From Anaerolineales bacterium (lineage in GTDB: Bacteria > Chloroflexota > Anaerolineae > Anaerolineales > Villigracilaceae), in contig JACZJB010000104.1 in the NCBI GenBank assembly GCA_014860805.1, forward strand, positions 13,075 to 77,074: 64,000 nt of DNA. Direction: 5' to 3'. Of the stretch, positions 24,889 to 50,181 are shown piece by piece. The notes below the pieces were generated by a model that did not search any database, had not been told where the DNA came from, and was given only the letters and a program-made list of their open reading frames with translations. How positions within the stretch are numbered: the first letter of the stretch is position 1; every line of letters begins with the position of its first letter. A program made the position numbers and the translations under genes.

Positions 24889-24890
24889 AA

Positions 24891-30720: not shown

Positions 30721-30817
30721 CAAACGAAGAGTTTAAGACATTATTCCGTTGACAAAGCGCAAAAAACAGCGGAAAATTGAAGGGTGGCACAAGTTCACCC
30801 TGATAAGGAGGGTTATC

Positions 30818-33250: not shown

Positions 33251-33271
33251 CGGTCAAGAATCGCTCTTTAT

Positions 33272-33307
33272 ACCTCCTTCTCCCACCCGGAGAAGGAGGT
33301 TTTTTTT
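33272..33307 (+). terminator. intrinsic terminator
   Basis: ACCTCCTTCTCC-CACCC-GGAGAAGGAGGT followed by TTTTTTT. Confidence 0.85.
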
Positions 33308-33429
33308 AAGCAATAGAATCACAATCAATTAAAGCCAGCCAAGCAAGCATATCAAGTTCATTCCACAGTGTGGTGCAATAGAAATTTGGCCCTACAATCG
33401 GAACATTCATCATGGTTATGGAGTTGCTT

Positions 33430-36400
33430 ATGAAAACATTCCTCCCTCGCTCAACATTCTTACTTTTATTTCTGGCTATACTTTTATCAGCCGCCCAACC
33501 TCATTCCCCCGCCCGCGCCCAAAGTGACAAAATCACTTTTGCCGTGATCGGAGATTACGGCCTTGCGGGACAAAACGAGGCAGACGTGGCAAATCTCGTA
33601 AAGAGTTGGAACCCTGACTTCATCGTCACAACCGGGGATAATAACTACAACGACGGAGCTGCCTGGTCCATCGACCAGAATATCGGCCAGTATTATCAAG
33701 AATTTATTTATCCATACACAGGGAAATATGGAGCGGGCTCTCCCACAAGAAGGTTTTTTCCATCGCTGGGGAATCATGATTACGGGGGCGACAACGACGC
33801 CAATGCATATTTCAAATATTTTGGCTTTTATAAACAGGAAAGCTTTTACGATTTCGTTCAGGGACCTGTCCACTTTTTTATCGTGAACAGCAATAAGGAA
33901 GAACCGGACGGGTACAAGTCAAATTCCACACAGGCAAAATGGTTAAAGAAAGTCTTGACTGCGTCCACGTCTCCGTTCAATATAGTGGTATTTCACCACC
34001 CTCCGTATTCTTCAGGCAGGCATGGCTCCAACGAATACATGCGCTGGCCATTCAAGGAATGGGGCGCAGACGCAGTGATTGCCGGGCATGATCATATTTA
34101 CGAAAGATTGCTTGTAGACGAATTGCCTTATTTCGTAAACGGGATCGGCGGCGCAGAGTTATATCGTTTTGAAACCATTCTGCCGCAAAGCCAGGTACGC
34201 TACAACCAGGATTTTGGGGCAATGCGCGTGGAAGCATCCAGCACGTATATGAAATTCCACGCAATCACGCGGACTGGATTGCTGATCGACGAATATGTCA
34301 TTGGTCAGAACTACCCTACCGTCACAAGCATTACGCCAGTCAGTCAATCCCCAACAAATGCGAACAGCCTCAACTTCCAGGTCACTTTTTCGGAGGCAGT
34401 GTCAGGCGTGGATGCTGCCGACTTTGCACTCACTACCAATCTCAGCGGGGCGGCCATTGAAACCATCAGCGGGACTGGAAATACATATCTTGTTTCAGTA
34501 AACACAGGAACCGGTGATGGAACCCTGCGCCTCGACCTAACGGACGACGACTCAGTCACGAACAGCATGAACAACCCTCTTGGCGGACCGGGCATTGGCA
34601 ACGGAAACTTTTCGAACGGTCAAGCATACACAGTGGACAAAACCGCACCCAGCGTTGCATCAATTGTTCGCGCTGGCGGAAGCCCGACAAACGCGGGCAG
34701 TGTGGATTTTTCCATCGTTTTTTCCGAGGCAGTCAACGGCGTAGACCTTTCTGATTTTGCACTCACAACCAGCGCAGGCGCCTCCTTCATTAATATGAAC
34801 GGGTCTGGCAACTCCTATGTTGTTTCCATCGCCACAGGCACAGGCGACGATACAATAAAACTAGATTTTATCGACAACGACAGCGTCACTGACCTGGCAG
34901 GTAACGCCACAACTGCAGGCTTTTCCAGCGGGGAAATTTATTCAATAGATCGCAGCGTGCCATTCGTTACATCCATTGTCCGCGCAAACCCAAACCAGGC
35001 AAACTCTTCCAATGTGGATTTCACTGTCAGTTTTTCAGAAGCAGTTAACGGCGTAGATAGAAGCGATTTCTTCCTTTCCACATTGAATGGAGCAACGATC
35101 AATACTGTTTCTGGCAGCGGCAGCGTTTATAACATTTCAGTGTCCACTCAGCCCGGTAACGACACGATCCGCCTTGACCTGATCGACAACGACAGCATTT
35201 TTGACAACGCGGGAAACATGCTTGGCAGCCCAGGGAGTGGAAACGGAAATTTCACCAACGGTGAAACTGTCACGTTCAGTCAGTATGCGCCGATAGTGAC
35301 TTCGATTACGCGAGCCAGTTACAACCCCACCAGCGCCGCAAGCGTGGATTTTATTGTCACATTTTCTGAAAGCGTGACCGGCGTGGATGCATCCGATTTT
35401 ATTTTGACAGGAATTCCCAATACATCGATATTGAATGTCAACAATTCAAACCCCTTCTATGTTGTTACAGTTAGCACAGGCGCAGCGGAAGGCGAATTAA
35501 AGCTTGACCTCGTGGATGATGACAGCATTCAAAACGCTTCAGGAGTCCAATTAGGTGGAGAAGGAATTGGAAACGCAAATTACACAAGCGGCGAAAAATA
35601 TTCTATCGACAGAACTCCCCCGCGGGTCACTTCGATCGTGCGCGCAAGCAACAACCCCACCATCAATTCCAGCGTGGATTTCATTGTCACGTTTTCAGAA
35701 CCCGTTGCAGGTGTGGACGCATCCGATTTTCGTTCCAACACAACAAACTTAAACTCAGTCGTTACAAATTTTCAAAGTGCAAATCCGTTCTTCGTGGTGA
35801 CGTTAAACGTCGGGGCAGGCTCCGGCACACTTCGTCTTGACCTGAGCGATAACGGCAGCATTACCGACCTTGCCGGGAACAAACTGATCGATGGAAATTT
35901 TACGAACGGAGAATCATTTACCGTCGCAAAAATAACTGTCAATTTTCCTGCGCCGAATATTTTGAGCCGTACCACACTGACAAACAACCCAAGACCGAAC
36001 TTTTCCTGGGGCACTGTCCGCAATGCTCAAGCGTATGAGATCTTCATTGCGCAAGATGCCAGCTTCACGCAAATTGTGTGGGTTCAAACCATCAATCAGA
36101 CAAATTTTACGCCAGTCTCTCCGCTGGCAGACGGAACATACTTCATGCAGGTGCGGGCGTACAACGCCGCTGGATCACCCGGAAAATTCAGCAAACGATA
36201 TATCATCACAATAGACACCACGCCTCCCCCTGCGCCGACACTTGTCAGCCCGCCCAATAACACAAACGCCCCGACACAACCCACATTGCAATGGAACCCG
36301 GTAAACGGCACAGTGCAGTACCAAATTGAGTTGGACAACAATTCGGATTTCTCAAGCCCCGAGTTTAGAGATACAACAAGCAAAACCTCCATTCGGACGA

Positions 36401-36501
36401 AAACTCTTGCCAAAGGCTCAACCTACTACTGGCGGGTTCGCGCAAAGGATAAAGTTGGAAATTGGAGTAGTTGGTCTGTATTTTCAGTAAACATACGATA
36501 A
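33430..36501 (+). CDS. secreted calcineurin-like metallophosphoesterase with five tandem Ig-like repeats of about 105 aa and two FN3-like domains
   Basis: FAVIGDYG, GDNNY, GNHDY, VVFHHPPYSS, GHDHIYE. The repeats share the pattern TSIVRA..NPT..SVDF.V.FSE.V.GVD.SDF. Alternative start at 33412. Confidence 0.8.
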   Translation: MKTFLPRSTFLLLFLAILLSAAQPHSPARAQSDKITFAVIGDYGLAGQNEADVANLVKSWNPDFIVTTGDNNYNDGAAWSIDQNIGQYYQEFIYPYTGKYGAGSPTRRFFPSLGNHDYGGDNDANAYFKYFGFYKQESFYDFVQGPVHFFIVNSNKEEPDGYKSNSTQAKWLKKVLTASTSPFNIVVFHHPPYSSGRHGSNEYMRWPFKEWGADAVIAGHDHIYERLLVDELPYFVNGIGGAELYRFETILPQSQVRYNQDFGAMRVEASSTYMKFHAITRTGLLIDEYVIGQNYPTVTSITPVSQSPTNANSLNFQVTFSEAVSGVDAADFALTTNLSGAAIETISGTGNTYLVSVNTGTGDGTLRLDLTDDDSVTNSMNNPLGGPGIGNGNFSNGQAYTVDKTAPSVASIVRAGGSPTNAGSVDFSIVFSEAVNGVDLSDFALTTSAGASFINMNGSGNSYVVSIATGTGDDTIKLDFIDNDSVTDLAGNATTAGFSSGEIYSIDRSVPFVTSIVRANPNQANSSNVDFTVSFSEAVNGVDRSDFFLSTLNGATINTVSGSGSVYNISVSTQPGNDTIRLDLIDNDSIFDNAGNMLGSPGSGNGNFTNGETVTFSQYAPIVTSITRASYNPTSAASVDFIVTFSESVTGVDASDFILTGIPNTSILNVNNSNPFYVVTVSTGAAEGELKLDLVDDDSIQNASGVQLGGEGIGNANYTSGEKYSIDRTPPRVTSIVRASNNPTINSSVDFIVTFSEPVAGVDASDFRSNTTNLNSVVTNFQSANPFFVVTLNVGAGSGTLRLDLSDNGSITDLAGNKLIDGNFTNGESFTVAKITVNFPAPNILSRTTLTNNPRPNFSWGTVRNAQAYEIFIAQDASFTQIVWVQTINQTNFTPVSPLADGTYFMQVRAYNAAGSPGKFSKRYIITIDTTPPPAPTLVSPPNNTNAPTQPTLQWNPVNGTVQYQIELDNNSDFSSPEFRDTTSKTSIRTKTLAKGSTYYWRVRAKDKVGNWSSWSVFSVNIR

Positions 36502-36518: not shown

Positions 36519-36546
36519 AATATTTATGATATTTATCTAGTATATT
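36519..36546. promoter_or_regulatory. 28-bp AT-rich element, copy 2 (AATATTTATGATATTTATCTAGTATATT), abutting the sufR -35
   Basis: 27/28 identical to 30693-30720, in the same orientation. Confidence 0.6.
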
Positions 36547-36573
36547 GACAGGAACATACAGGGCAGTTATACT
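36545..36573 (+). promoter_or_regulatory. sigma-70-type promoter of sufR (TTGACA-17 bp-TATACT), predicting a leaderless or near-leaderless mRNA
   Basis: TTGACA at 36545-36550 and TATACT at 36568-36573. The ATG is at 36581. Confidence 0.6.
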
Positions 36574-36583
36574 GCCCTGTATG
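36555..36583. promoter_or_regulatory. perfect 13-bp inverted repeat (CATACAGGGCAGT-TAT-ACTGCCCTGTATG) spanning the -10 box and start codon of sufR
   Basis: Read directly. Candidate autoregulatory operator. Confidence 0.55.
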
Positions 36584-37219
36584 AAATCTACGCGAGACAA
36601 AATTTTACAGACTTTACTTCGAAAACCACGTTCCACCATCAACGATCTTGCCGAAGCGGTTGGAATCAACCCCATCTCTGTGCGCCATCACCTAACCAAC
36701 CTTCAAATGGAGGGATTGGTTGAAGGACAGGAAGAGCGTCATGGAGTGGGACGCCCCCGCCTTGTGTATGTGCTTACCGACGAAGGCATGGAACACTTCC
36801 CCACTCGTTACATGAAATTGACTACACGACTACTTTCCCAAATGAAAGAGACCATGCCCGGGCCGGTGGTGGCAAAATTATTCAATCAAATTGCTGAAGA
36901 TCTCGCCAGCGAATATACAGAAGACATGAAAAACCTGGGTATGGAAGAACGCCTAGACTTCGTCAAAGAAATGCTGGCTCAGGAAGGTTTCACAGTGGAA
37001 TGGGAGAAAAAGGATGGAGGTCAATACCAGATCCACGAAATCTCCTGCCCGTATTATCAAATTGGCATTGCACATCCTGAAGTCTGCACTGTGGATCAGA
37101 CGTTGATCTCAAAAATGCTTGCGTTACCGGCAAACAAAGTCCAGTGTATTTTGGACGGCGGCGCACACTGCACGTATGTTGTCCAGTCTGCGGAAGTAAA
37201 AACGGCAAAACACTCATAA
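36581..37219 (+). CDS. sufR: SufR-like transcriptional regulator (winged HTH plus C-terminal 4-Cys Fe-S sensing motif)
   Basis: RDKILQTLLRKPRSTINDLAEAVGINPISVRHHLTNL. C-terminal C-x12-C-x19-C-x7-C. Linked to the suf genes. Confidence 0.75.
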   Translation: MKSTRDKILQTLLRKPRSTINDLAEAVGINPISVRHHLTNLQMEGLVEGQEERHGVGRPRLVYVLTDEGMEHFPTRYMKLTTRLLSQMKETMPGPVVAKLFNQIAEDLASEYTEDMKNLGMEERLDFVKEMLAQEGFTVEWEKKDGGQYQIHEISCPYYQIGIAHPEVCTVDQTLISKMLALPANKVQCILDGGAHCTYVVQSAEVKTAKHS

Positions 37220-37234
37220 TTTAGCAGAGGAACC

Positions 37235-37579
37235 ATGAGCGAAGAAATTAAAGAAATCCAGTGGACCATCCACACCACCCACCCGGAATTGGTAAAGGAA
37301 GCCCGCGCCAAACTGTCAGAGGTGATCGACCCTGAAATTGGAATGAGCATCATCCAGTTGGGTCTGATCCGCGATATCGAAGTTGAAAATAACATCGCCA
37401 GCCTGAAGATGATCCTCACAACACCCTTCTGTCCCTATGGCCCGGCCATGATCGAAATGACCAAAGCCAAGGCGATCGAAGGCCTCAACATGCCCGTCAC
37501 GATCAACATGGGTATGGAAATGTGGGACTTTTCGATGATGGAAGATCCATCCGCGTTGGACTGGGGAATGTACGCGTAA
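37235..37579 (+). CDS. sufT: DUF59/MIP18-family Fe-S assembly protein (SufT-like)
   Basis: VIDPEIGMSIIQLGLI ... TTPFCP. Confidence 0.8.
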   Translation: MSEEIKEIQWTIHTTHPELVKEARAKLSEVIDPEIGMSIIQLGLIRDIEVENNIASLKMILTTPFCPYGPAMIEMTKAKAIEGLNMPVTINMGMEMWDFSMMEDPSALDWGMYA

Positions 37580-37594: not shown

Positions 37595-37630
37595 AAAAAA
37601 GACGCCGACTTTTGGTCGGCGTCTTTTTTA
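37595..37630. terminator. bidirectional terminator
   Basis: AAAAAAGACGCCGAC-TTTTG-GTCGGCGTCTTTTTT. Confidence 0.85.
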
Positions 37631-38215
37631 TTGCCCCTTTTTCCAATGCATTACATGCGGCTGCTCGCCTTCCGCAAAGCCTGAAATAATGATCAAAGCA
37701 TTTGTTACATTCGTGCTTTGGTTGCGCCAGCGATGACTCAATTTTGAAGCGAATAACAGGCTATCCCCTGCTTCAAGATGAAAAACTTCCTTTTCAACGA
37801 AATAATCCAACTGACCGCGCAGACAAAATACGAACTCATGTCCGCTGTGCACCATGCCATGTTGACCGCAGGAAGCGCCGCTCTCCAGCGTCAGCATGAA
37901 CGGCTCCACCCTGCCGACAAACTGCTCCCCGCCTAATGCTTCAAATACCCCGCGTGTAAATGACATGCGTGTCCGTTCGTCCGACTTCAAGAATACAACC
38001 TGCTTCTTTTCGGTCTCTCTATCGAAAAAAGCTGTGATCGAAACCCCCAACGCATCAGCCAATTTGTAAAGTGTGCTTACCGAGGGCGAGGTCTTCCCGC
38101 GTTCGATCATCGAAAGAGCGTTGGCAGACAACCCGCTTTTTGCACCGAGTGCGCGCATGGAAATCCCCCTTGATTCTCGCAGTTCGCGCAAGCGAGAGGC
38201 CACATCCACCGACAT
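37628..38215 (-). CDS. XRE-family HTH regulator with a C-terminal cupin domain
   Basis: LRELRESRGISMRALGAKSGLSANALSMIERGKTSPSVSTLYKLADAL, then a cupin beta-barrel. Start at MSVDVA is likely. Confidence 0.8.
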   Translation of the reverse strand: MSVDVASRLRELRESRGISMRALGAKSGLSANALSMIERGKTSPSVSTLYKLADALGVSITAFFDRETEKKQVVFLKSDERTRMSFTRGVFEALGGEQFVGRVEPFMLTLESGASCGQHGMVHSGHEFVFCLRGQLDYFVEKEVFHLEAGDSLLFASKLSHRWRNQSTNVTNALIIISGFAEGEQPHVMHWKKGQ

Positions 38216-38297
38216 TGCTTCTCTCTGAAACGATCCCATACTACCTCCAAACTAAAACACTGTCTCAAATAAAACTTGCCGGATTATACCAATTTTT

Positions 38298-38343
38298 ATA
38301 TGACATTAAACAAAACTTAATATGACACAATTCACTATTGTGT
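38298..38343. promoter_or_regulatory. candidate operator region: direct ATATGACA repeats (38298, 38320) and the palindrome ACACAAT-N5-ATTGTGT (38325-38343)
   Basis: Read directly. Lies in the divergent region between the XRE-cupin and ArsR genes. Confidence 0.35.
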
Positions 38344-38406
38344 AAAGTATCACAAATGTATGATAGGGCTATAAATATTCGTTTATTCGCATATAAGAAG
38401 GTAAAT

Positions 38407-38754
38407 ATGGTCACACCTGTCCTAAAACAAGAAATCACTCAACTCGAAGCCAATTTCTGTGCGGCGCTTTCAGACCCAAACCGCCTTCTCATCTTGTACG
38501 CTTTGGATGAAGGTCCACGCAACGTAACCGATCTCGCAAATGAACTCGGGCTGAACCAGCCAACCACGTCGCGGCATCTCAAAATCCTGCGCGAGCGCGG
38601 GCTTGTGGATACCGTCCGCACAGGCACAACCATCACCTACCATCTTTCAGATCCAAGGCTTATTCAGGCGCTTGATCTTTTGCGCAGCGCCATGCGTGAC
38701 AGACTCGCACATCAAGCAAACTTGATCAATGAAGTTTCACAGGAGAATGTATGA
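38407..38754 (+). CDS. ArsR/SmtB-family transcriptional regulator
   Basis: FCAALSDPNRLLILYAL...NVTDLANELGLNQPTTSRHLKILRERGLV. ATGA overlap with the next gene. Confidence 0.85.
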   Translation: MVTPVLKQEITQLEANFCAALSDPNRLLILYALDEGPRNVTDLANELGLNQPTTSRHLKILRERGLVDTVRTGTTITYHLSDPRLIQALDLLRSAMRDRLAHQANLINEVSQENV

Positions 38755-40193
38755 AGAACCGCTTCCCTTCCTGGACCCTGGGGCTGATCGGCATCTTGTT
38801 GCTGATCCTCGTCCCTGTCCTGTACTACTTACCTCGCGCCCCAAAAGCCAATGACCCTGCGGCGTATCTCCCCACCAAAGTTGTGCACGTGGATCACAAA
38901 GACATCGTCCAGGGCGAATTTAAAACTGGACAGGATGTAACCCGCGCCTGTCTCGAATGTCACGAAGACGCTGCCACAGAATTGATGAAAACAACCCACT
39001 GGACCTGGGAATCGAAAGCCTTTGATGTTCCCTGGCGCGATGACAACGTGACCATTGGCAAGATCAACCAGATCAACAATTTCTGCATCGGCTCACAAGG
39101 CAACGAAAACAAGTGTATGTCCTGTCACGCTGGTTATGGCTGGGAAGAAGGCAAAGAAGCCGCTCTTGCCAGCGAAGAAAATGTGGATTGTCTCGCCTGT
39201 CACGCGGATACTGGCATGTACGGCAAAGGCACTTTCGGCAACCCCGCGGATGGCGTTGACCTGCTGGCTGCCGCACAAAGTGTGCGCGCTCCAACCCGCG
39301 AAAACTGCGGTAAATGTCACTTCGATGGCGGCGGTGGAAACGGCGTCAAACACGGCGACCTCGACGAAAGCCTGTACTTCCCGGACCAGTCCCTGGATAT
39401 TCACATGGGCGGCGAGCTCAACATGCAATGCACCGACTGTCACGTCTCCACAGACCACCAAATTTTGGGTCGCATGCTTGCAGACAATTACACCATTGAC
39501 CCAAATGAACAAGTCTCCTGCGAGCAGTGCCATGTAAACCAAAAGCATGAAGATGAACGGATCAACACCCATCTTTCCGCAGTAGCCTGCCAAACCTGCC
39601 ACATTCCCGCGATAGCGCTGGAAGACCCAACCAAAACCACTTGGGACTGGTCACAAGCGGGTCAGGATGGACGCGAAGACGATCACTTCACCTACCTCAA
39701 GATCAAAGGTGAATTCACCTACGAACAAAATTTCAAACCCACTTATCTCTGGTTCAACGGCAACAACGAATATCGCTACATCCTCGGCGACCCGCTGGGT
39801 AAAAGCGGTATCACCTACATCAACAAGCCTGCGGGCAGCATCAAAGACCTCAGCGCAAAGATATTCCCCTTCAAAATTCACGTTGCCAAGCAACCCTATG
39901 ACGTGAAAAACAATTACCTGCTTCAACCCATCACATCCGGCGAAGGCGGTTTCTGGACAACCTTTGATTGGAACAGCGCCTTCGAACTTGCCGCACCGGT
40001 CACGGGCTTGGAATACAGCGGAGAATATGGTTTCACAGAAACACATATGTACTGGCCGACTACGCACATGGTTCAATCTGCCGACAAAGCCTTGCAATGT
40101 AACTCCTGTCATTCCGCCACCGGCGAACCCAGCATTATGGACTGGGAAGCCCTCGGCTATTCCGGCGACCCAATTGAATGGGGCGGAAGGTAA
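38751..40193 (+). CDS. octahaem c-type cytochrome, tetrathionate-reductase (Otr) family-like, N-terminally membrane anchored
   Basis: Eight CxxCH motifs (CLECH, CMSCH, CLACH, CGKCH, CTDCH, CEQCH, CQTCH, CNSCH). THWTWES block. N-terminal TM helix. Confidence 0.75.
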   Translation: MKNRFPSWTLGLIGILLLILVPVLYYLPRAPKANDPAAYLPTKVVHVDHKDIVQGEFKTGQDVTRACLECHEDAATELMKTTHWTWESKAFDVPWRDDNVTIGKINQINNFCIGSQGNENKCMSCHAGYGWEEGKEAALASEENVDCLACHADTGMYGKGTFGNPADGVDLLAAAQSVRAPTRENCGKCHFDGGGGNGVKHGDLDESLYFPDQSLDIHMGGELNMQCTDCHVSTDHQILGRMLADNYTIDPNEQVSCEQCHVNQKHEDERINTHLSAVACQTCHIPAIALEDPTKTTWDWSQAGQDGREDDHFTYLKIKGEFTYEQNFKPTYLWFNGNNEYRYILGDPLGKSGITYINKPAGSIKDLSAKIFPFKIHVAKQPYDVKNNYLLQPITSGEGGFWTTFDWNSAFELAAPVTGLEYSGEYGFTETHMYWPTTHMVQSADKALQCNSCHSATGEPSIMDWEALGYSGDPIEWGGR

Positions 40194-40201
40194 TAACAAC
40201 C

Positions 40202-42913
40202 ATGAAACGACACACTCTCTTCCTTCTAGTTGGATTAACTGCTCTGGCACTTGCCATCGGATTTGGAACGGCTCTTGCTTCACCCGAAACTGCTCCCGCT
40301 CATCAGGCATCTGTCTTGCACCCGAACTTCGCCCTGCTGGACAAGAATGGCGACAACGTTCTTGAAAGTAATAACTCTGTTTCCACCATGCAAACCTGCG
40401 GACAATGCCACGATACGAAATTCATCGAATCCCACGCATTTCACGCTGACCTTGGCTTGTCCGACTTCGCCGCTTCAACAGAAACATGGGACGCCTCCAC
40501 AGGCACTTTCGGCCAATGGAATCCCCTGACCTACCGCTTCCTCTCTCAGAGCGGAGATGAACGCCTTGATCTCTCCACCGCCGAGTGGTTGATGCTTAAT
40601 GGCGAGCGCATCGTTGGCGGCGGACCTGCCACCACATCCCGCGATGGCACTTTACTGACAGACTTAAAGACAAGCAAAGAAAATCCAGAAACTTCCATCC
40701 TTGACGAAAACGGAAGCGCCGGCACATGGGATTGGGATAAATCTGGCACTATGGAAATGAACTGCTTCCTCTGCCACCTTGAATCTCCCAATACCGCCGC
40801 TCGCGCCAAAGCTATTCAATCTGGGGAGTTTGGCAACGCCAACACCGCCACCCTGCTTGGCTTGGACATCGTCAATGACGGCAACGAAGGCTGGGTCTGG
40901 AATACAGCTGCCTTTACCGAGACAGGCGAACTCAATAGTGAAATGATCGGTATTCAAGACCCTACCAACGCCAACTGCGCGGCCTGCCATGGAGAAGTTC
41001 ACCCTGAAACAAAGGAGCCGCTCACCCTCAACGCTTGCGACCTCGACTATCCGCAAACCGCCACCACCGGGCAGGTTGTCAGCGGACAACGCATCAATCA
41101 GTCGGGCGTAAACCTCTCAGGCAAGAATGACATCTCTCGCTCATGGGACATCCACGCAGAACGCCAGCTGCAATGCACAGATTGTCATTTCGCACTCAAC
41201 AACCCCGCTCACGTCAGCGAGGCACAAAGCAACAATCCCGACCATCTGATTTACGATCCCCGTTCGCTGGAGATCGGCGAATATCTTGAAAGACCTGACC
41301 ATAACTTTGCCCGTGGACAAAGCGCGCAATTCAATGTCGCGCCAGAATACAAGGGAACCATGCGCCGCTGTGAGAACTGCCATGATGCCAGCAAAGGACA
41401 TGCCGACTGGCTGCCTTACATCGAAACTCACATGGATGCTGTCGCTTGCGAAACCTGCCACATCCCGCAGATGTATGCGCCTGCCATTCAATCCTATGAT
41501 TGGACGGTCATCACTACGGAAGGAACCGCTGTGGAAACCTGCCGTGGCGTGGAAGGCAACCCAAACGCAGTGACTTCCCTCGTTACTGGCTATGAACCCG
41601 TCCTGCTCAACCGCACCAACATTGACGGTGACTCATTGCTTGCGCCGTACAACTTGATCACATCTTTCTACTGGGTGTACGATGACGCCAATGGCAACAA
41701 ACGCCCCGTACGTTTGATGGACCTTGAAGCGGCATTCCTCGAGAATGGAAAGTATGCAAAAGACATCGTCGCCGCATTTGATGCGAACAGCGACGGCAAA
41801 CTAAGTACAAAAGAATTGGTAATCGACTCTCCCGCCAAGGAAGGAGTCGTCAAGGCGAAACTCGAGGCGTTAGGGCTGAATAGTCCACGCATCGAGGGCA
41901 TGGTTCAACCGTACAGTATTAATCACAACGTCACCCGCGGTGAAAATGCCGTCAACGATTGCAAAGTCTGCCACAATGCGGACTCGCGCATCACTCAATC
42001 CATCAAACTCGCGGATAATGCGCCAGTCATGCCAGTCTTCGACGTGGATAACAACGTGCAGGGCAGCGGTGAACTTGTCACAGGCGAAGATGGAGCGTTG
42101 TACTATCAACCCGCACCGGCCAAGGATGGCATGTATGTTTTTGGCTCCAGCCGTGTAAGTTGGATCGACTGGCTCGGCGCGCTTGCCTTCGCGGGTTCGC
42201 TTTTAGGTGTGATCGGCCACGGGACGTTGAGATTCTTATCGTCGAAGAAACAGACTCACGGCGCAGTCCGAACCGAACGCATTTACATGTATGATGCCTA
42301 TCGCCGCTTCTGGCACTGGCTTCAAACAGCTTCCATTGTTATCCTGTTATTCACGGGTCTCATCATTCACAGGCCCGATATCTTCGGCGCGTTCTCCTTC
42401 CGCGGTGTAGTGACTTTGCACAATGTCATCGCCGCCATATTGGTGATCAACGCACTGCTCTCGGTCTTTTATCACGTCGCCACCGAACGCATGCAGGAGT
42501 ACATCCCCCGCCCGTATGGCTTCTTTGATGATGCGATGGTTCAAGCGAAATACTATATTTCAGGAATTTTCAAAGGAGAAGGACATCCCTTTGAGAAGCG
42601 CCCCAATAATCGCATGAACCCCATTCAGAAGATCACCTATTTTGGAATTCTGAACGTGCTGCTTCCTTTGCAGATGCTCACTGGCGCGTTGATGTGGGGC
42701 GTGCAGAAGTGGCCTGCCCTTGCCAACGCACTCGGCGGACTTCCCTTCCTTGCACCTTTCCATTCGTTGGTCGCATGGCTGTTTGGAACCTTCATCATCG
42801 TACATGTGTATATGACCACCACCGGCGCAACCCCGCTCGAAGCGACTCGCGCCATGATCACTGGCTACGAAGAAGTGGAAGTACATAATGGCAAAGATGA
42901 AGAAGGATCATAA
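40202..42913 (+). CDS. fusion of a 7-haem c-type cytochrome domain with a C-terminal FdnI/HydC/PhsC-type cytochrome b membrane domain (CbcL-like quinol oxidoreductase)
   Basis: Signal peptide. Seven CxxCH motifs (CGQCH, CFLCH, CAACH, CTDCH, CENCH, CETCH, CKVCH). C-terminal about 250 aa has TM helices with conserved His (FWHWLQ, TLHNV, FHSLVAW, IIVHVY). Confidence 0.75.
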   Translation: MKRHTLFLLVGLTALALAIGFGTALASPETAPAHQASVLHPNFALLDKNGDNVLESNNSVSTMQTCGQCHDTKFIESHAFHADLGLSDFAASTETWDASTGTFGQWNPLTYRFLSQSGDERLDLSTAEWLMLNGERIVGGGPATTSRDGTLLTDLKTSKENPETSILDENGSAGTWDWDKSGTMEMNCFLCHLESPNTAARAKAIQSGEFGNANTATLLGLDIVNDGNEGWVWNTAAFTETGELNSEMIGIQDPTNANCAACHGEVHPETKEPLTLNACDLDYPQTATTGQVVSGQRINQSGVNLSGKNDISRSWDIHAERQLQCTDCHFALNNPAHVSEAQSNNPDHLIYDPRSLEIGEYLERPDHNFARGQSAQFNVAPEYKGTMRRCENCHDASKGHADWLPYIETHMDAVACETCHIPQMYAPAIQSYDWTVITTEGTAVETCRGVEGNPNAVTSLVTGYEPVLLNRTNIDGDSLLAPYNLITSFYWVYDDANGNKRPVRLMDLEAAFLENGKYAKDIVAAFDANSDGKLSTKELVIDSPAKEGVVKAKLEALGLNSPRIEGMVQPYSINHNVTRGENAVNDCKVCHNADSRITQSIKLADNAPVMPVFDVDNNVQGSGELVTGEDGALYYQPAPAKDGMYVFGSSRVSWIDWLGALAFAGSLLGVIGHGTLRFLSSKKQTHGAVRTERIYMYDAYRRFWHWLQTASIVILLFTGLIIHRPDIFGAFSFRGVVTLHNVIAAILVINALLSVFYHVATERMQEYIPRPYGFFDDAMVQAKYYISGIFKGEGHPFEKRPNNRMNPIQKITYFGILNVLLPLQMLTGALMWGVQKWPALANALGGLPFLAPFHSLVAWLFGTFIIVHVYMTTTGATPLEATRAMITGYEEVEVHNGKDEEGS

Positions 42914-42979
42914 GTTGAACGTCAAACATATTAACCTTTGTTTTTGTAGTGCCCTTCGTGTTTAGAAAAGGAATGAACC

Positions 42980-43525
42980 ATGACCACTCAAATTAGAAAA
43001 TCGATCTTCAAGCGGCCTGAAAAAGCGTATGTGCACCCATACTTTGGCGGATTAGTGTTGGGAATCGTCCTATTCCTTGCCTTCTTTCTAACAGGCAATG
43101 GACTTGGCTCTTCAGGCGCGACCAGCCGCATTGATGCACTGATCGTGGACAGTATCTCGCCTTCCCACGTGGACAATAATCCATATCTGTTGAAGATGGC
43201 AGGCGGCGACAAAAATCCGCTGGATGATTGGATCGTGCCTGTCTTCTTTGGGGCACTGCTCGGCGGGTTTGCATCAGGCTTCATGAATGGTCGCCTCAAA
43301 TTCATGACCACAAAAGGTCCGCACATCTCAGACCGTACCCGCTGGCTGATGGCTTTCCTCGGCGGCGTCATCTTCTTGTACGGCGCGCGCATGGCGCGCG
43401 GCTGCACTTCAGGGCAGGCACTCTCCGGCGGAGCTACTCTCTCCGCGGGTTCCTGGGTGGTCATGTTCGCCATCTTTGGCGGCGCGTACGGACTGGCATA
43501 CTTCGTCCGCAAGTTATGGAATTAG
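42980..43525 (+). CDS. YeeE/YedE-family sulfur-compound transporter, half 1
   Basis: ARMARGCTSGQALSGG motif. About 4-5 TM segments. Confidence 0.75.
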   Translation: MTTQIRKSIFKRPEKAYVHPYFGGLVLGIVLFLAFFLTGNGLGSSGATSRIDALIVDSISPSHVDNNPYLLKMAGGDKNPLDDWIVPVFFGALLGGFASGFMNGRLKFMTTKGPHISDRTRWLMAFLGGVIFLYGARMARGCTSGQALSGGATLSAGSWVVMFAIFGGAYGLAYFVRKLWN

Positions 43526-43535
43526 GAGAACTAAA

Positions 43536-44837
43536 ATGAACTTTCCTCTCCCCTCTCTAATTGCAGTCAGCGCAGCCAACCCGTGGACTTATGTGCTCTT
43601 CGGTGCCATCGGCTTCGCGTTTGGTTACGTCTTGGAAATGTCGGGCTTTGGCGACTCTCGCAAGTTAGCTGCCCAGTTTTATTTTACTGAACTGACCGTG
43701 CTCAAAGTAATGTTTACCGCCATTGTCACCGCAATGGTGTTGACCTTTGGCGCAGTCGGGCTTGGCGTGTTGGATTTCAGCCAGGTATGGGTCAACCCAA
43801 CCTACCTTTGGTCTGGCTTGGTCGGCGGACTGATCATGGGCGTGGGTTTTATCGTTGGCGGTTTCTGCCCCACCACATCCCTCGCCTCTGCCTCTACAGG
43901 CAAAATTGACGGCATGCTTTTCATGCTTGGCGGATTTGTTGGCGCGTTTCTCTTCGGCGAAACCGAACCGCTTTTCACCAACTGGTACAACAACGCAGGC
44001 TATTATGGCCGCGTCACTCTTGACCAGGTCTTCGGCATCCCAGTCGGCGCGGTAGTGCTGCTCGTTGTCCTTATGGCGCTCTTTATGTTCTGGGGTGCGG
44101 AGCAACTCGAACGCATCTTTGGCAAAAAAGACCTGAGCAAAGAACCCAGGCTTCGGGTGGCAGGAGCTGTGGCTCTTTTCGCTGGAGCCGTGGCAGTGCT
44201 TGCAATCGGCAATCCGTCTCTTGAAGACCGCTACAACAAGGTCACCTTCACCCGCACTGAAACCATCCCGCAGTTAAATGCAGACCCCATTGTCAACACC
44301 TACGTGTACACAGCCGATCAAATGCTTGAAAAGCGGCTGGTATTCACCTCTCCTGCCGAAGCCTTCAAAGCAAAATACAATCAGGCCATGAATCCCGTTT
44401 ATCTGGATGTGCGTTCCGAGGCGGATTACAACCTGTATCACATTCAAAATGCGGTCAATGTTCCGTTGGGCCGTCTGACGGAAGTCATCCCTGTGCTGCT
44501 CAGCGAACCGCCCGCTAACACAGTCTTCATCTTGATGAGCAACGATGAAACCGCAGCGGTGGCTGCGTGGAAGATCTTGGTTGGATCGAGCGTGCAGAAT
44601 GTCTACATTCTGGAAGGCGGCGTGAACAACTGGATCGCTTTCTTCGGAGAAAATGAAAAAGCGCTTCGCCCCGCCCCGAATGCTGGTGACGACCAATTGG
44701 GATACATCTTCCCTGCGGCATTGGGCAGCCGCTACGAATCATGCTCCCCCGATCCCATCGAATACGAAAAGCTGGAATTCGAACAGAAGATCATTCTGCA
44801 GCTCAAACGTGACAAATCCGGCGGCGGATGCGGATAG
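43536..44837 (+). CDS. YeeE/YedE-family transporter half 2 fused to a C-terminal rhodanese-homology domain that lacks the catalytic Cys
   Basis: GFIVGGFCPTTS motif. Rhodanese-like YLDVRSEADYNLYHIQNAVNVPL...ILEGGVNNW. The active-site loop reads FILMSNDETAA. The protein ends ...SGGGCG. Confidence 0.7.
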   Translation: MNFPLPSLIAVSAANPWTYVLFGAIGFAFGYVLEMSGFGDSRKLAAQFYFTELTVLKVMFTAIVTAMVLTFGAVGLGVLDFSQVWVNPTYLWSGLVGGLIMGVGFIVGGFCPTTSLASASTGKIDGMLFMLGGFVGAFLFGETEPLFTNWYNNAGYYGRVTLDQVFGIPVGAVVLLVVLMALFMFWGAEQLERIFGKKDLSKEPRLRVAGAVALFAGAVAVLAIGNPSLEDRYNKVTFTRTETIPQLNADPIVNTYVYTADQMLEKRLVFTSPAEAFKAKYNQAMNPVYLDVRSEADYNLYHIQNAVNVPLGRLTEVIPVLLSEPPANTVFILMSNDETAAVAAWKILVGSSVQNVYILEGGVNNWIAFFGENEKALRPAPNAGDDQLGYIFPAALGSRYESCSPDPIEYEKLEFEQKIILQLKRDKSGGGCG

Positions 44838-44863: not shown

Positions 44864-44905
44864 AAATAGCAAACTCCCGAAGTTAACTTCGGGAGTTTGC
44901 TATTT
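44864..44905 (+). terminator. strong palindromic terminator after the cytochrome/YeeE operon
   Basis: ATAGCAAACTCCCGAAGTTAACTTCGGGAGTTTGCTAT, followed by TTTGG. Confidence 0.75.
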
Positions 44906-47323: not shown

Positions 47324-47455
47324 CAATTGAGATAAATCACATCGAGTTTAGTTGTTACAAATGGCACTTGTATTGACATTTGACGGCAGGTACGCTGTGG
47401 TTGACAGTCTGAGAGCATAAAGCGGCGGGTGCTTTTCCCGCAGATGGAGGCTAGG

Positions 47456-48550
47456 ATGCGATCTCTGCGCAAAGTGGTTGTAACAGAAGCGATCATTCAT
47501 ATCCTGGAAAAGGATGCGGGGAAAAAGATAATTTCGGAACGTACCGTTCCACTAAAGAACAATGAAAATCTTTCCGTATACTTCGAAAAGCTAATCCAAG
47601 AAGCCAGTGAAGAAGGCGCGGCGCGGGCCGCTACCTTTTCCGATGCCGATCCCAACGAGCCGTTCGAATTATGCATGAAGATGTTCAGGAATCCGAAGGC
47701 TTTTATCCCCGGCTCCAAGGTGTTCGGCGAAAAATTCTATCAAATCATGGAGTCGAACAAGAGCATCGGGGATGGGGATCTGGTGGTTTGCCGCTTCAAC
47801 GCGGATTCCGAATCAGGCAGTGACTTTCTCGCCATTATGAAGCTGCTTCCCGTTGGGGCGTACAGGAACGTACAGAAAGGGAAAGCGGGTTCGGGGCAGA
47901 TGTATGTTGACCTTGAGGTGGATCCCTTTATCTTCCCCAAGGACATCAACGTGCTGCAGAAGGTTGCTCTTATCAGCAAGCCGCCCTCCAAAGACAGGGC
48001 TCCTGATGTGCTGTTTCTGGACAAGCAAGATAAACGGGGAGATGTTGCCAAGTTCTTCAAGACCTTTTTGGATGTAGAGTTCGTGCGCGACAATGCCGAG
48101 CTGACCCTGAACCTGTACAACTGCCTGATCCACAGCCTGAACGATATGCGCGAGACCCTGACCCCCGCACTGGACAAGTATCTTGGAGATAAGATCTATC
48201 AGATATTCACCGAGCAGGGCATCGCTGCATTGACCAAAAAGGGTTTTCTGGATTTGTATGAATGGGCGGAAGGGTTGGTTGCACCGCCCACGGTCCGAAG
48301 CTGGTTTGCGAAGGACCTGAAACTCGAATTCCAGAATACGAAAAAGATATTTCTCGATCTCAAGCTGGTGGAAAGATACACCAAACAGCGCGCCTTCTAC
48401 GGGCAGGTAGGCTCCAAATTTCACGTGGAGACAGGCAGCTATAACGATCTTGTACAGAGCGTGCGCTATGTAGCGAACCAGCCCGGCGTGCCGCCGTACT
48501 TCGAGGTGCTCATCCACACCTCCACCTGGCGCGAAGATACGAAGAGATAG
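47456..48550 (+). CDS. NdpA/YejK-like (NA37 family) nucleoid-associated protein homologue
   Basis: N-terminal VVTEAIIHILEKD and central GDLVVCRFNADSESGSDFLAIMKL resemble NA37 blocks. RBS GGAGG lies 5 nt upstream. Family assignment is by eye only. Confidence 0.55.
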   Translation: MRSLRKVVVTEAIIHILEKDAGKKIISERTVPLKNNENLSVYFEKLIQEASEEGAARAATFSDADPNEPFELCMKMFRNPKAFIPGSKVFGEKFYQIMESNKSIGDGDLVVCRFNADSESGSDFLAIMKLLPVGAYRNVQKGKAGSGQMYVDLEVDPFIFPKDINVLQKVALISKPPSKDRAPDVLFLDKQDKRGDVAKFFKTFLDVEFVRDNAELTLNLYNCLIHSLNDMRETLTPALDKYLGDKIYQIFTEQGIAALTKKGFLDLYEWAEGLVAPPTVRSWFAKDLKLEFQNTKKIFLDLKLVERYTKQRAFYGQVGSKFHVETGSYNDLVQSVRYVANQPGVPPYFEVLIHTSTWREDTKR

Positions 48551-48552
48551 CC

Positions 48553-50181
48553 ATGTTCGAGGATGCCGTCCCTGCGCTGGAGGAATTTTTCGCAGTCTGC
48601 GGGTTGGAGCCAAAGAGCCTGCCTGACTACGAAGGCTTTCACAAGCTGAGCGTTCAGATATACAGATTGCCAACTGTACAGGCGGCCAAATTTGACCTGC
48701 GCCATTTCACACAGATCGCGCAGGTCTTCGCAGATTGTTTTACCTGTCAGTTTATCCTGCATCAGGACGATCTGGATCCTCCCGAAGAGAATTCCGTCAT
48801 ACTATCCATCCCCCCTGCTGTGAGTCAGGCAAACCTTGACAGATTCCACGAGCGCATTGGGGAAGTTGATACGCTTGAGTTTTCCTTTCAGCTTGATAAA
48901 AGGAAACTGCTGGCAAGGCAGGGCATCTCCGCGCCCAACACCAACTATTTTCTATATCTGTTCCCAGTCGCGCTCACCCGCTTCCTGAGCGGTGCAACCC
49001 TGGCTGGCCAGCCCTGCAGCGCCTATGACAGCTTGAAGATGTTCGAAGAGAATCTCTGGCACGGGAGACCTAATGAGGTGGATGAAAAAGCGGTCATCCT
49101 CCTGCTCGGTCATGACATCCAGCTCAATGGCGATCAATTCGCGCTGATCGGCGGAACCTACCTGACGAACTGGCAGGCAGCCGCCTCAACAGACGGCGTG
49201 CCCGCAGCCCAATCGAACTCGATCTACGAGACCTGCCGCGCAAATATCTTTTGGGATAACCGCTGGGTGACCCGCCTGACCCCGCCCAAATTAAAGATCA
49301 ACGATGGAGTTTGGAAGCAGGATGACCCGATGGTCTCTGCGCTTCAGACCCAACTCTTCAACCTGATCGTGCTCTTTACCGCCAGCCGTGTTGCAGGCAG
49401 CGGCGAGGACTGGATCGCCACCTATGCCAGTTCCCTCGGCATCGGGGATGTGACGCTGTACGCCCCTGCCCGCCTGCCGCTGGAGCCGCGCCTGTCTGCC
49501 AATGTCAATTCGTTCTATGAAATATTTAGCTGGGCATATTTTTCACAATGGACGCGCGACCATATCGCATTCGTGCAAGGCACGCTGGCAGAAGAATTGA
49601 TGCACAGCCCGCTTGAAGATGCCCGCAAGGTGCTGCTTGAGCGCGCGAAGATGCTCAAAGCCAGCCTGGACGTTCGCTGGGACAATTTTATTCGCGAGAA
49701 ATTACAAGCCTACTCGGAGGAGGAACAAGCCCTGGAAAGCGCGGTGGTGGAGATCATCGACTCGTTCGGCGAGCGGGTGACCGCCATGGGGAAATCCGTT
49801 TCGGACGCGATGCTGACCGCCGTGGCGGCGCTGCTGGGTTCTTTCGTGGCGGCGGGCTTTGGCAGCGAACGCTTCAACCCCTTCATCTTTCGCGTCGGCA
49901 TGCTGATGTATTCCGGGTACGTGCTTATCTTCCCCTTTTTGTACAACATGATCGCGCAGTGGCGTCAATACAATATGTTGAAGGGCGGCCTCCTCGGCCG
50001 CATGGAACGGCTCGAGCAGAAATTATCTGCGGAGCGAATGAATGAGATCGCAGGCAAATGGTTCGAACAGAGTGACCGTAATTTTCAGCTTTGGTTCTGG
50101 CTGACGACCGCCATCTATATCGTTGTGATCCTGCTCGGCTTCGCCGCGGCCTTTATCGTCCCAAAGCTGATCGGCGGATGA
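48553..50181 (+). CDS. 542-aa protein of unknown function with about 3 C-terminal TM helices; translationally coupled to the NA37-like gene
   Basis: The start lies 2 nt after the upstream stop. TM segments AMLTAVAALLGSFVAAGFG, VGMLMYSGYVLIFPFLY, LWFWLTTAIYIVVILLGFAAAFIV. Confidence 0.6.
   Translation: MFEDAVPALEEFFAVCGLEPKSLPDYEGFHKLSVQIYRLPTVQAAKFDLRHFTQIAQVFADCFTCQFILHQDDLDPPEENSVILSIPPAVSQANLDRFHERIGEVDTLEFSFQLDKRKLLARQGISAPNTNYFLYLFPVALTRFLSGATLAGQPCSAYDSLKMFEENLWHGRPNEVDEKAVILLLGHDIQLNGDQFALIGGTYLTNWQAAASTDGVPAAQSNSIYETCRANIFWDNRWVTRLTPPKLKINDGVWKQDDPMVSALQTQLFNLIVLFTASRVAGSGEDWIATYASSLGIGDVTLYAPARLPLEPRLSANVNSFYEIFSWAYFSQWTRDHIAFVQGTLAEELMHSPLEDARKVLLERAKMLKASLDVRWDNFIREKLQAYSEEEQALESAVVEIIDSFGERVTAMGKSVSDAMLTAVAALLGSFVAAGFGSERFNPFIFRVGMLMYSGYVLIFPFLYNMIAQWRQYNMLKGGLLGRMERLEQKLSAERMNEIAGKWFEQSDRNFQLWFWLTTAIYIVVILLGFAAAFIVPKLIGG

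Follow-up and report, generated by a model that had tools for sequence, protein, structure and literature searches.

The DNA analysed here (the window) is a 64,000-nucleotide stretch from an Anaerolineales bacterium of the Chloroflexota (family Villigracilaceae; assembly GCA_014860805.1, contig JACZJB010000104.1, positions 13,075 to 77,074 of the forward strand). It contains a cluster of five co-directional genes, referred to as g1-g5, which encode a repressor of the ArsR/SmtB type (g1), an octahaem cytochrome c of the Otr family, presumed to be the catalytic subunit (g2), a fusion of a heptahaem domain with a dihaem cytochrome b (g3), and two halves of a YeeE-type membrane protein, PmpA-like (g4) and PmpB-like (g5), of which the latter is extended by a rhodanese-homology (Rhd) domain that ends in a cysteine tail. 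An earlier annotation, made from the sequence alone and referred to below as the sequence-only reading, had described five packed open reading frames; all of them are present at the positions and with the lengths that it claimed (Table 1), as is the ATGA overlap between g1 and g2 (38751-38754).

The remaining junctions are also short. The stop codon of g2 is separated by 8 nt from the ATG of g3 (40202), the 66-nt spacer between g3 and g4 includes a GGA-rich ribosome-binding site, and g4 and g5 are parted by 10 nt containing AGGAGA. The hairpin that follows the cluster starts 26 nt past the g5 stop codon, and a promoter/terminator scan found no comparable terminator within g1-g5. Upstream, a 167-nt AT-rich spacer parts g1 from a divergent gene with XRE helix-turn-helix (HTH) and cupin domains. 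No Rfam families were found in or near the operon. On these sequence features, g1-g5 appear to constitute one operon with short junctions that closes at a single strong hairpin terminator.

Table 1. Features of the gene cluster, with positions in the window (the last row refers to positions in other loci)
Feature	Position	Strand	Remarks
Divergent XRE-HTH + cupin regulator gene	37628-38239	-	PF01381 + PF07883
GTGACA-type half-sites	38298-38336	.	further to TGTGTAAAGTATCACA
CRP/FNR-like palindrome TGTGTAAAGTATCACA	38339-38354	.	TGTGA-N6-TCACA, 1 mismatch
Candidate ArsR operator TATTCGTTTATTCGCATA	38376-38393	.	TATTCG-N6-CGAATA, 1 mismatch
g1, ArsR/SmtB repressor	38407-38754	+	115 aa; NF033788
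g2, Otr-family octahaem cytochrome c, presumed catalytic subunit	38751-40193	+	480 aa; TIGR04315
g3, heptahaem + dihaem-b fusion	40202-42913	+	903 aa
g3, N-terminal part: signal peptide + extracytoplasmic heptahaem domain	40202-42157	+	probable Otr-fold paralogue without Lys-haem loop
g3, C-terminal part: transmembrane anchor + dihaem cytochrome b with four transmembrane helices, FdnI/HydC/PhsC type	42158-42913	+	PF01292
g4, PmpA-like half (C-terminal half of YeeE)	42980-43525	+	181 aa; PF04143
g5, whole gene, PmpB-like half + rhodanese-homology domain	43536-44837	+	433 aa
g5, membrane part: PmpB-like half, YeeE helices H1-H7 + extra transmembrane helix	43536-44207	+	PF04143
g5, C-terminal part: predicted extracytoplasmic rhodanese-homology domain + Cys tail	44208-44837	+	PF00581
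GGCG codons closing g5	44823-44834	+	
Bidirectional intrinsic-terminator-like hairpin	44864-44905	.	19-bp stem, 8 GC pairs, 4-nt loop, T-runs on both strands
Monohaem cytochrome c genes of Shewanella-type otr loci	L083 5637-5966; L084 5611-5964; L085 5622-5966; L086 5686-6015; L088 5279-5614		

A search with a profile of the g3 fusion protein against one genome per GTDB species yielded at least 591 confirmed relatives; the synteny counts given below refer to the best 80 of these, in which the fusion protein is 48-73% identical. Most of the 80 loci are labelled Anaerolineae or Anaerolineales, Caldilineales, Promineifilaceae, Ardenticatenaceae or Aggregatilineaceae, while the remaining labels are only Chloroflexota, Chloroflexia or bacterium and, in one case, Vicinamibacterales. 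The gene for Otr lies directly 5' of the fusion gene in 78 of the 80 loci, g4 lies directly 3' of it in 77 and g5 is next in 71. Every missing gene is accounted for by a contig end, i.e., no locus with room for the gene lacked it. An ArsR gene is found upstream in 53 of the 69 loci that have enough upstream DNA, and the median junctions across loci are 22, 35, 61 and 15 nt. The gene set and its order are conserved across Anaerolineae, and the linkage proposed in the sequence-only reading is borne out without a counter-example for the four downstream genes wherever the contig allows. Because the order Otr-fusion-PmpA-PmpB/Rhd is invariant even where identity has fallen to about 48%, these genes can be regarded as a functional unit, referred to below as the module.

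One Anaerolineales assembly (4.99 Mb) holds the same six genes in the same order between different flanks. More generally, assemblies with Anaerolineales or Chloroflexota labels are rich in homologues of g2, g3 and g5, several of which share contigs; for each of the three proteins, identity to the query is no lower than 73-81% among the top 120 clusters, one g5 homologue carries the name Candidatus Villigracilis affinis, and hundreds of 90%-identity clusters originate from wastewater, groundwater and sediment assemblies. A complete module (58% identity) is also found in a metagenome-assembled genome (MAG) labelled Vicinamibacterales (Acidobacteriota; locus L027, CAYZYG010000123.1), where mis-binning or transfer is possible.

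The g2 protein matches the model TIGR04315, "tetrathionate reductase family octaheme c-type cytochrome", with 543 bits at a cut-off of 375, and its whole soluble part aligns to Otr of Shewanella oneidensis (SO_4144, PDB 1SP3; 439 bits, E 1.8e-130, 49% identity). Both proteins harbor eight CXXCH motifs, a number that is retained in 75 of 77 g2 orthologues. The Shewanella enzyme is soluble, whereas g2 displays one long N-terminal hydrophobic transmembrane (TM) segment (residues 9-27), which resembles an uncleaved anchor. Residues K104 and C112, invariant in 78 of 78 orthologues, align to Lys56 and Cys64 of 1SP3, which we take (after Mowat et al. 2004) to be the unusual ligand of the active-site haem 2 and the active-site cysteine, respectively. 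Judged from these features, g2 is a true member of the Otr family of octahaem enzymes and carries the signature of a Lys-ligated active-site haem. The description in the sequence-only reading of a membrane-anchored 8-haem Otr-family cytochrome is thus retained, and the TIGR04315 score argues against any other haem-protein family.

The g3 protein contains seven CXXCH motifs, which are kept in 80 of 81 orthologues. Among 32 diverse members of the family there is no variation in these motifs or in four b-domain histidines (H705, H740, H854 and H868), and the stretch preceding haem 1 contains no Lys common to the family. The b domain matches PF01292 with 82 bits (cut-off 30), and its best NCBIfam match is the PhsC model NF011582 (135 bits, below the cut-off of 204). 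The haem domain is related to g2: BLASTP of g2 against g3 gives an E value of 1e-10 over 272 residues, and hhalign places g3 haems 1-6 on Otr haems 2-7 (98.3% probability, E 1.2e-14). An AlphaFold2 (AF2) model built from a diverse alignment (pLDDT 79, pTM 0.77) has five TM helices (653-683, 699-723, 733-760, 807-833 and 846-873), and a Foldseek search with this model returned 1SP3 as the top match (E 5e-8), as well as FdnI (1KQF_C, TM-score 0.65) and HyaC, the cytochrome b of hydrogenase-1 (6G94_A, TM-score 0.60). From sequence and model, we read the heptahaem domain as a probable paralogue with the Otr fold from which haem 1 and the catalytic Lys-haem loop have been lost; g3 would serve as a haem wire joined to a quinone-pool interface.

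In the sequence-only reading the 903-residue protein had been likened to CbcL of Geobacter sulfurreducens (GSU0274), which joins a periplasmic domain with multiple c haems to a C-terminal dihaem cytochrome b and is interpreted as a quinone-pool interface (PMC6295460). At the level of architecture this likeness is supported, i.e., an N-terminal multihaem c domain precedes a C-terminal PF01292 dihaem b domain of the FdnI/HydC type in both proteins. Homology to CbcL is not: CbcL has nine haems and six TM helices, compared to seven CXXCH motifs and five predicted TM helices in g3, the haem domain of g3 has the Otr/MmcA fold and appears to be an Otr paralogue, and CbcL serves extracellular electron transfer without an Otr or YeeE partner. 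Among the CbcL/MtoC/MtrH homologues listed in a 2018 survey, none is from Chloroflexi (PMC6295460). The b domain resembles those of PhsC, FdnI and HyaC in family, in its four invariant histidines and in fold, but it is fused to a haem-c domain, whereas PhsC, FdnI and HyaC serve molybdo- or NiFe enzymes via an FeS subunit. MmcA from Methanosarcina, like g3, is a seven-haem member of the Otr-related fold, but is not fused to a cytochrome b; g3 is not considered to be an MmcA member because its haem domain matches TIGR04314 only partially, with 45 bits at a cut-off of 250. A library-wide search with g3 returned 396 clusters at 50% identity (E <1e-30), many of which span both domains while others end past the anchor helix. 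Residues 520-540 of g3 (window 41759-41821), DANSDGKLSTKEL, give weak EF-hand matches (PF00036, E 8e-4), and D527 and E538 are nearly invariant in the family; a Ca2+ site in the extracytoplasmic haem domain is possible.

The two following genes each match one half of PF04143: g4 corresponds to the C-terminal half (73 bits, profile positions 166-309) and g5 to the N-terminal half (60 bits, profile positions 11-185). This order, PmpA and then PmpB, is that of the split YeeE proteins (PMC11582611), and each half has one conserved cysteine. On the basis of the correspondence given in PMC11582611 and of an alignment to YeeE from Spirochaeta thermophila (StYeeE, 6LEO), Cys142 of g4, which is invariant in 76 of 76 sequences, is equivalent to Cys293 of StYeeE, and the conserved Cys111 of g5 is equivalent to Cys91. 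Against the TsuA/YedE equivalog models, which describe single chains of about 330-350 residues and have cut-offs of 350-645 bits, g4 and g5 score 23-28 bits. From their sequences, g4 and g5 appear to be the two antiparallel halves of a channel of the PmpAB/YeeE type. The species transported by PmpAB is unknown in the literature (PMC11582611, PMC7315123).

The C-terminal part of g5 matches the rhodanese family PF00581 with 45.8 bits (cut-off 22.2), and the profile also matches rhodanese structures; the sequence-only reading had correctly recognized a two-gene YeeE/YedE system with a rhodanese-homology domain in its second half. The active-site loop reads ...VFILMSNDE, where the catalytic position is occupied by Met334 in the window and by M, V, I, A, L or T among 70 orthologues, of which none has a Cys, and the domain is by this measure catalytically dead. 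It is followed by a tail of about 60-64 residues that ends in ...KRDKSGGGCG-COOH. The end takes the form G[GSAT]GCG or GGCGG (the latter in 2 sequences) in 68 of 69 orthologues from genomes, down to 39% identity, and the C-terminal Cys motif is found in all 19 complete orthologues from metagenomes. The cysteine itself, Cys432, is present in 69 of 70 orthologues and is the sole family-wide conserved Cys of the C-terminal domain. Cys403 was considered as its general partner and rejected, being replaced by Ala in 53 of the 70.

A glycine-flanked cysteine at the extreme C-terminus, here conserved throughout the family and on a domain predicted to be extracytoplasmic, is the hallmark of SoxY, in which the cysteine of the GGCGG motif forms a sulfur-binding arm that carries sulfur covalently between enzymes (PMC6067878). 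Because the g5 tail has no Pfam match, it was rejected as a SoxY domain, and the likeness is a motif-level analogy rather than homology. Unlike SoxY, g5 lacks the SoxY fold and carries its cysteine on a seemingly dead rhodanese scaffold that is attached to one half of a transporter, and genes for SoxZ, SoxXA and SoxB are absent. A C-terminal thiocarboxylate of the ThiS/MoaD type was also rejected: the protein terminates in GCG and not GG, and the domain is predicted to reside outside.

The predicted location is based on helix count and charge. The profile of the g5 membrane part aligns to residues 6-202 of StYeeE, where the N terminus is outside and helix H7 reverses the topology (PMC7449682). 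In g5, equivalents of H1, H3, H4, H6 and H7 together with one more TM helix make six, and therefore the C-terminal domain would be on the same side as the N terminus. The mean number of Lys and Arg residues in successive g5 loops (70 orthologues) is 0.3 (N-tail), 2.3, 0.03, 1.1, 1.4 and 4.3, and the net charge of the C-terminal domain is -13. The mirror pattern seen in g4 (N-tail 4.8, long loop 2.9, next loop 5.2, C-tail 2.0) fits an antiparallel partner of g5. Thus, g4 is predicted to be N-in/C-in and g5 N-out/C-out with its rhodanese-like domain outside the membrane, and Otr, the heptahaem domain and the rhodanese-like domain would all be found at the outer face, each tethered to the membrane.

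These features bear on the function suggested in the sequence-only reading, according to which Otr reduces free tetrathionate or another oxyanion, the split YeeE imports the free thiosulfate, and the rhodanese is a cytoplasmic protein like YeeD. The membership of g2 in the Otr family is in line with this model, as is the finding that YeeE/TsuA proteins import thiosulfate and require a cytoplasmic sulfur-transferase partner (PMC7449682, PMC11073785). The thiosulfate-type assignment is not sustained, however, since g4 and g5 are PmpAB-type halves that fall far below the TsuA/YedE cut-offs; a catalytic Cys is missing from the rhodanese domain, whose predicted location is outside, and the model gives the invariant C-terminal Cys arm no role. 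We consider import of a free product quite unlikely. Instead, a dead rhodanese with a GGCG Cys arm, predicted to face outward, points to protein-bound sulfur rather than to a free anion.

The first gene of the operon encodes a winged-helix protein that matches NF033788 (85 bits, cut-off 55) and PF01022 (70 bits). Its second-best model is NF045707, "TsoR" (61 bits, below the cut-off of 115), a name for which nothing relevant was found in the literature, and it scores 49 bits against the BigR model (cut-off 155). The closest structures are those of NmtR, BigR, NolR and SqrR. All of 60 orthologues have Cys18, the only conserved Cys. Dithiol sensing as in BigR (C42/C108) or SqrR (C41/C107) was rejected for g1, where the first of these cysteines is Tyr31 and the C-terminal helix has no Cys. 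Metal sensing in the style of NmtR/SmtB is not supported by inspection of this helix, which has one His and no ligand cluster. Our guess is that the signal may be a thiol modification of Cys18 at the dimer interface.

The combination of an ArsR-family repressor with a nearby pmpA-pmpB pair having one Cys in each half is shared with the split YeeE-YedE proteins of the PmpAB/BigR/PigS systems and with SoxT1A/SoxT1B-SoxR. YeeE-like SoxT proteins move periplasmic Sox sulfur inward and signal to an ArsR-type repressor (PMC11582611). The module differs from these systems in the two extra TM helices of g5 and its 209-residue domain with the Cys tail, predicted to face outward, in its repressor, which has one Cys at another position than in the BigR/PigS/SoxR-type systems, and in its partners, which are multihaem cytochromes instead of a persulfide dioxygenase or the Sox/sHdr proteins. 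An ArsR-type repressor together with a split YeeE/YedE is the signature of the BigR/PigS operons, including the BigR-controlled yeeE-yedE-pdo2 (PMC7315123, PMC11582611), and BigR is among the closest solved ArsR structures of g1. The module could accordingly be seen as an anaerobic counterpart that protects against reactive-sulfur stress, with export by PmpAB, disposal by the haem proteins and no conservation of energy. The BigR/SqrR dithiol and the persulfide dioxygenase of those operons are missing, however, and fifteen c haems in combination with a quinone-interacting dihaem b are a large investment of the kind typical of respiratory chains, which makes detoxification very unlikely.

The operators bound by ArsR-family repressors are short, imperfectly palindromic sequences close to the promoter. 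Motifs were counted, allowing at most one mismatch, in 51 orthologous upstream regions and in 2000 random 160-nt segments of the same loci. TATTCG-N6-CGAATA was found in 32 of the 51 upstream regions, compared to 11 of the 2000 background segments, and it sits at a fixed distance from the g1 ATG (median -32) in several Anaerolineae orders. Because it has the form and location expected from ArsR operators in general, this sequence is a plausible candidate for the g1 operator. TGTGA-N6-TCACA, at a median of -102 from the g1 start, was found in 35 of the 51 regions (background 22 of 2000) and persists in loci without the XRE-cupin neighbor; its presence would imply control by a global factor of the CRP/FNR type. 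The XRE-HTH/cupin gene is the divergent neighbor of the module in the window and in 13 relatives, and in the Caldilinea-type loci L020, L031 and L043 a homologue replaces ArsR as a co-directional gene upstream of Otr; its product is possibly a second regulator. "ArsR-controlled", the term used in the sequence-only reading, is reasonable in view of the ArsR gene and the operator-like motif, but is unproven and leaves out the CRP/FNR-like site.

The association of Otr with these partners defines one branch of the family. Metagenome contigs were scanned around Otr genes, ranked by similarity to Shewanella Otr, with hidden Markov models built from the orthologue sets. The full module was present at 50 loci with module-type Otr wherever the contig was long enough. 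In contrast, none of the module partner genes was found at 29 loci with Shewanella-like Otr, i.e., otr loci of this type are devoid of the heptahaem/b fusion, PmpAB and ArsR. At the closest of them Otr is instead accompanied, on its 5' side, by a small monohaem cytochrome c (109-117 residues) with the conserved C-terminus ...DSxxP(Q/A)TCG-COOH and, in L083-L086, by a protein of about 570 residues that ends in Phe and resembles an outer-membrane protein. The C-terminal Cys of the monohaem protein is another such Cys beside an Otr; a haem-less relative in L096 ends in ...VPSC. In L104, L122 and L159 the heptahaem protein (with one terminal TM helix) and a 213-residue cytochrome b are encoded by separate genes that still continue with PmpA and PmpB-rhodanese, and the g3 fusion would therefore be one state of an older gene set. 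The proteins of L104 are identical to HUU29031-HUU29034 of a MAG deposited as "archaeon", a label that may reflect mis-binning, an unclassified lineage or horizontal transfer.

Several other Otr genes are found next to sulfur carriers or transferases. In lucinid symbionts divergent soxY and soxZ genes adjoin otr (PMC11237559). In L096 (3274-9344) the genes leading up to a Shewanella-like Otr encode, in this order, a triple-rhodanese lipoprotein whose three domains are catalytically competent, one small protein and two membrane proteins, and then a 4Fe-4S dicluster protein with a Tat signal and a cytochrome b of PF01292; here, an FeS-plus-b route to the quinone pool stands in place of the heptahaem fusion. 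A rhodanese with an intact CRSGNRS loop is encoded 3' of the PmpB-rhodanese gene in L161 (9001-9453) and L162 (13559-14026), and from the strongly basic N-terminus and the single TM helix behind it, this protein is predicted to be N-in with its domain facing outward. In L160 (6334-7257) an ArsR-rhodanese fusion with an intact CRGPFC loop is located upstream of Otr. These arrangements hint at independent links between Otr and sulfur transfer. The pairing of Otr with a cytochrome b is in itself already known, because an Otr-cytochrome b561 cluster has been reported for an Ignavibacteria MAG (PMC7509429).

In vitro, Shewanella Otr can use nitrite and hydroxylamine as substrates for reduction (Atkinson 2007, as cited in PMC11237559 and PMC7509429), and the module could in principle be a reductase for these compounds, with the sulfur-type genes merely co-located or used for maturation of haem or other cofactors. 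The order Otr-fusion-PmpA-PmpB/Rhd would then hardly have stayed invariant over such divergence, and the regulator variant in L160 carries a rhodanese domain; we regard a role in nitrogen-oxide reduction as extremely improbable. The nitrogen-oxide, detoxification and free-thiosulfate explanations are all less consistent with a dead, outward-facing, Cys-tailed domain in an invariant gene set.

From the above discussion, we tentatively favor, with somewhat less than even confidence, a function as a quinone-pool-linked, outward-facing reductase of sulfur intermediates that works via a Cys arm and is joined to a sulfur-transfer channel. Menaquinol, as the quinone is presumed to be, would be oxidised at the cytochrome b of g3, and electrons would be transferred through the two b haems and the seven c haems to Otr at the outer face of the membrane. 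Thiols react spontaneously with tetrathionate and polysulfide, and Cys432 of g5 could take up tetrathionate, polysulfide/S0 or thiosulfate as a covalent adduct. The arm would then present the bound oxidised or zero-valent sulfur to the Otr active site for reduction, in a way that resembles the role of SoxY in the Sox system or that of Sud with polysulfide reductase. Sud of Wolinella succinogenes is a soluble periplasmic rhodanese-like polysulfide carrier with a canonical active-site Cys that serves PsrABC, where Psr is a molybdoenzyme with an NrfD-type anchor; the likeness is that an extracytoplasmic rhodanese-fold protein brings bound sulfur to a quinol-linked reductase. That the substrate of this Otr branch is sulfur held covalently on the glycine-flanked C-terminal Cys, and not a free oxyanion, is a narrower claim that we regard as possible but doubtful.

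With the arm anchored next to the entrance of the PmpAB channel, as proposed, part of the sulfur may be handed inward via Cys142 of g4 (outer) and Cys111 of g5 (inner). In the cytoplasm this sulfur would be assimilated and would modify Cys18 of the ArsR protein, thereby freeing the repressor from TATTCG-N6-CGAATA, while a factor of the CRP/FNR type could add redox or anaerobic control. Three membrane-tethered parts at the outer face would suit a cell wall without a closed periplasm. Inward movement of sulfur and its reporting to a repressor have been shown genetically for SoxT1A and SoxT1B with SoxR (PMC11582611). The sequence data establish the family assignments, the catalytic residues, the domain architecture, the gene order and the conserved motifs; what we infer in this scheme is the topology, what the arm does, which substrate is used, which way the electrons flow and how the signal is passed on.

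The path from quinol via cytochrome b and the seven haems to the octahaem protein, which the sequence-only reading had proposed, would fit the parts and their architecture; the direction of electron flow along it is not established. A reductive direction is favored because the assayed reactions of Otr are reductions, the cytochrome b is closest to PhsC and a CRP/FNR-like site is present. Alternatively, the same hardware may be oxidative. Otr and the Cys arm would then oxidise sulfide, polysulfide, sulfite or carrier-bound sulfane at the outer face or, in another form of this explanation, couple thiosulfate oxidatively to the arm as SoxXA does, and the electrons would reduce menaquinone on the cytoplasmic side at the FdnI-type b, such that the redox loop generates a proton-motive force while the channel passes the remaining sulfane inward. 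Such a function would agree with the FdnI/HyaC-like fold of the b domain, and an FdnI-type b conserves energy when electrons flow inward to quinone reduction on the cytoplasmic side, as in Fdn-N; run in reverse, as proposed for PhsABC, the loop would consume proton-motive force. A carrier arm next to a YeeE-like importer also follows the logic of Sox/SoxT sulfur oxidation (PMC11582611), and soxYZ adjoins otr in sulfur-oxidising symbionts (PMC11237559). On the other side, every Otr-family activity assayed, as far as PMC11237559 cites the earlier work (Mowat 2004, Atkinson 2007), is a reduction, and no other sulfur-oxidation genes, or sulfur-metabolism genes of other kinds, were found elsewhere in the 64-kb window. 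In addition, Otr is not known to have the features that mark oxidising multihaem enzymes, i.e., the Tyr cross-link of HAO and the Cys-ligated haem of SoxXA/TsdA. The thiosulfate/tetrathionate couple, at about +198 mV, is too high to reduce menaquinone. We consider the oxidative alternative, although it is the main rival, unlikely.

Several points weigh against the proposed reductase. As noted above, the energetics of an FdnI-type b would favor an oxidative role. The function of the module rests on sequence and prediction, and the topology of g5, although strongly indicated, is a prediction; the AF2 model of g5, based on 30 close homologues, is poor (pLDDT 47.6) and was used for the helix count only. 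A Pfam search with g5 residues 225-433 at E values up to 10 returned nothing but rhodanese, i.e., no SoxY, and the resemblance of the tail to SoxY spans only 4-5 residues. The dithiol pair of the known persulfide sensors is missing from g1, and ArsR is absent upstream in about a quarter of the loci. Furthermore, of 72 loci, 22 have no more than 30 nt between g3 and g4 but 9 have more than 150 nt, and for this reason an internal promoter before g4 is possible. With this reservation, the data do not support a view of the YeeE genes as a separate transcription unit.

Outside the module, the window contains a SUF operon (sufC, B, D, S and U with a Rieske-type ferredoxin; 24113-30588, - strand) that is parted from its likely regulator, a SufR-like gene scoring below the cut-off, and a DUF59/SufT-like gene (36545-37579, + strand) by genes for two large surface proteins, one of the choice-of-anchor Q type and the other a metallophosphoesterase with Ig-like repeats (30749-36501, + strand). 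The SufR-like/DUF59 pair also lies just 5' of the module in relatives (L002, L003, L005 and others). It was rejected as part of the module, being kept in close relatives only, with insertions between in L002, and represents local synteny. Elsewhere, an 801-residue open reading frame at 135-2540 (+ strand) joins FtsW/RodA (SEDS), penicillin-binding-protein dimerisation and transpeptidase domains in one polypeptide. The region 8000-16000 has a G+C content of 39-46%, compared to about 50-55% elsewhere, and may be an acquired island; it encodes a glycosyltransferase, a DUF6790 protein, a DinB-like protein, a GNAT protein and several open reading frames without a family match. At 47429-50181 (+ strand), a homologue of the NA37 nucleoid-associated protein is followed, after a 2-nt gap, by a 542-residue protein without a family match that has C-terminal TM segments.

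A literature search in which subscription journals were not covered found no description of this gene set, of a fusion with an outward-facing rhodanese-like Cys arm or of the operator motifs, in line with the statement in the sequence-only reading that no system with this combination had been characterised. Neither the reuse of a dead rhodanese as the scaffold of a SoxY-like arm nor the fusion of a YeeE half to an outward-facing domain was found described in the same search. In existing papers, PMC7509429 among them, otr appears only as one of the marker genes listed for Anaerolineae bins and others. The components taken singly are all of known kinds; it is the combination and the tethered arm that represent new variants.

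The structure of Otr was solved in 2004 and the gene is widely used as a metagenome marker of "tetrathionate reduction", but its physiological substrate and partners were never settled. The module supplies a defined and conserved set of partners, i.e., an interface to the quinone pool, a putative carrier with a tethered Cys arm, a channel, and a regulator whose probable operator can be recognised, which turns the question of the Otr substrate into concrete experiments. If the substrate is indeed sulfur held on the Cys arm, the module would represent a previously unrecognised, carrier-based pathway of extracytoplasmic sulfur redox chemistry, in which multihaem cytochromes follow a Sox-like logic, connect directly to the quinone pool and are coupled mechanically to a transmembrane sulfur hand-off and an ArsR-type sensor. 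Anaerolineae are among the most abundant uncultured heterotrophs in wastewater, groundwater and sediment systems, and because the module is very common, with at least 591 relatives and hundreds of clusters, its function bears on the cycling of sulfur intermediates by these bacteria.

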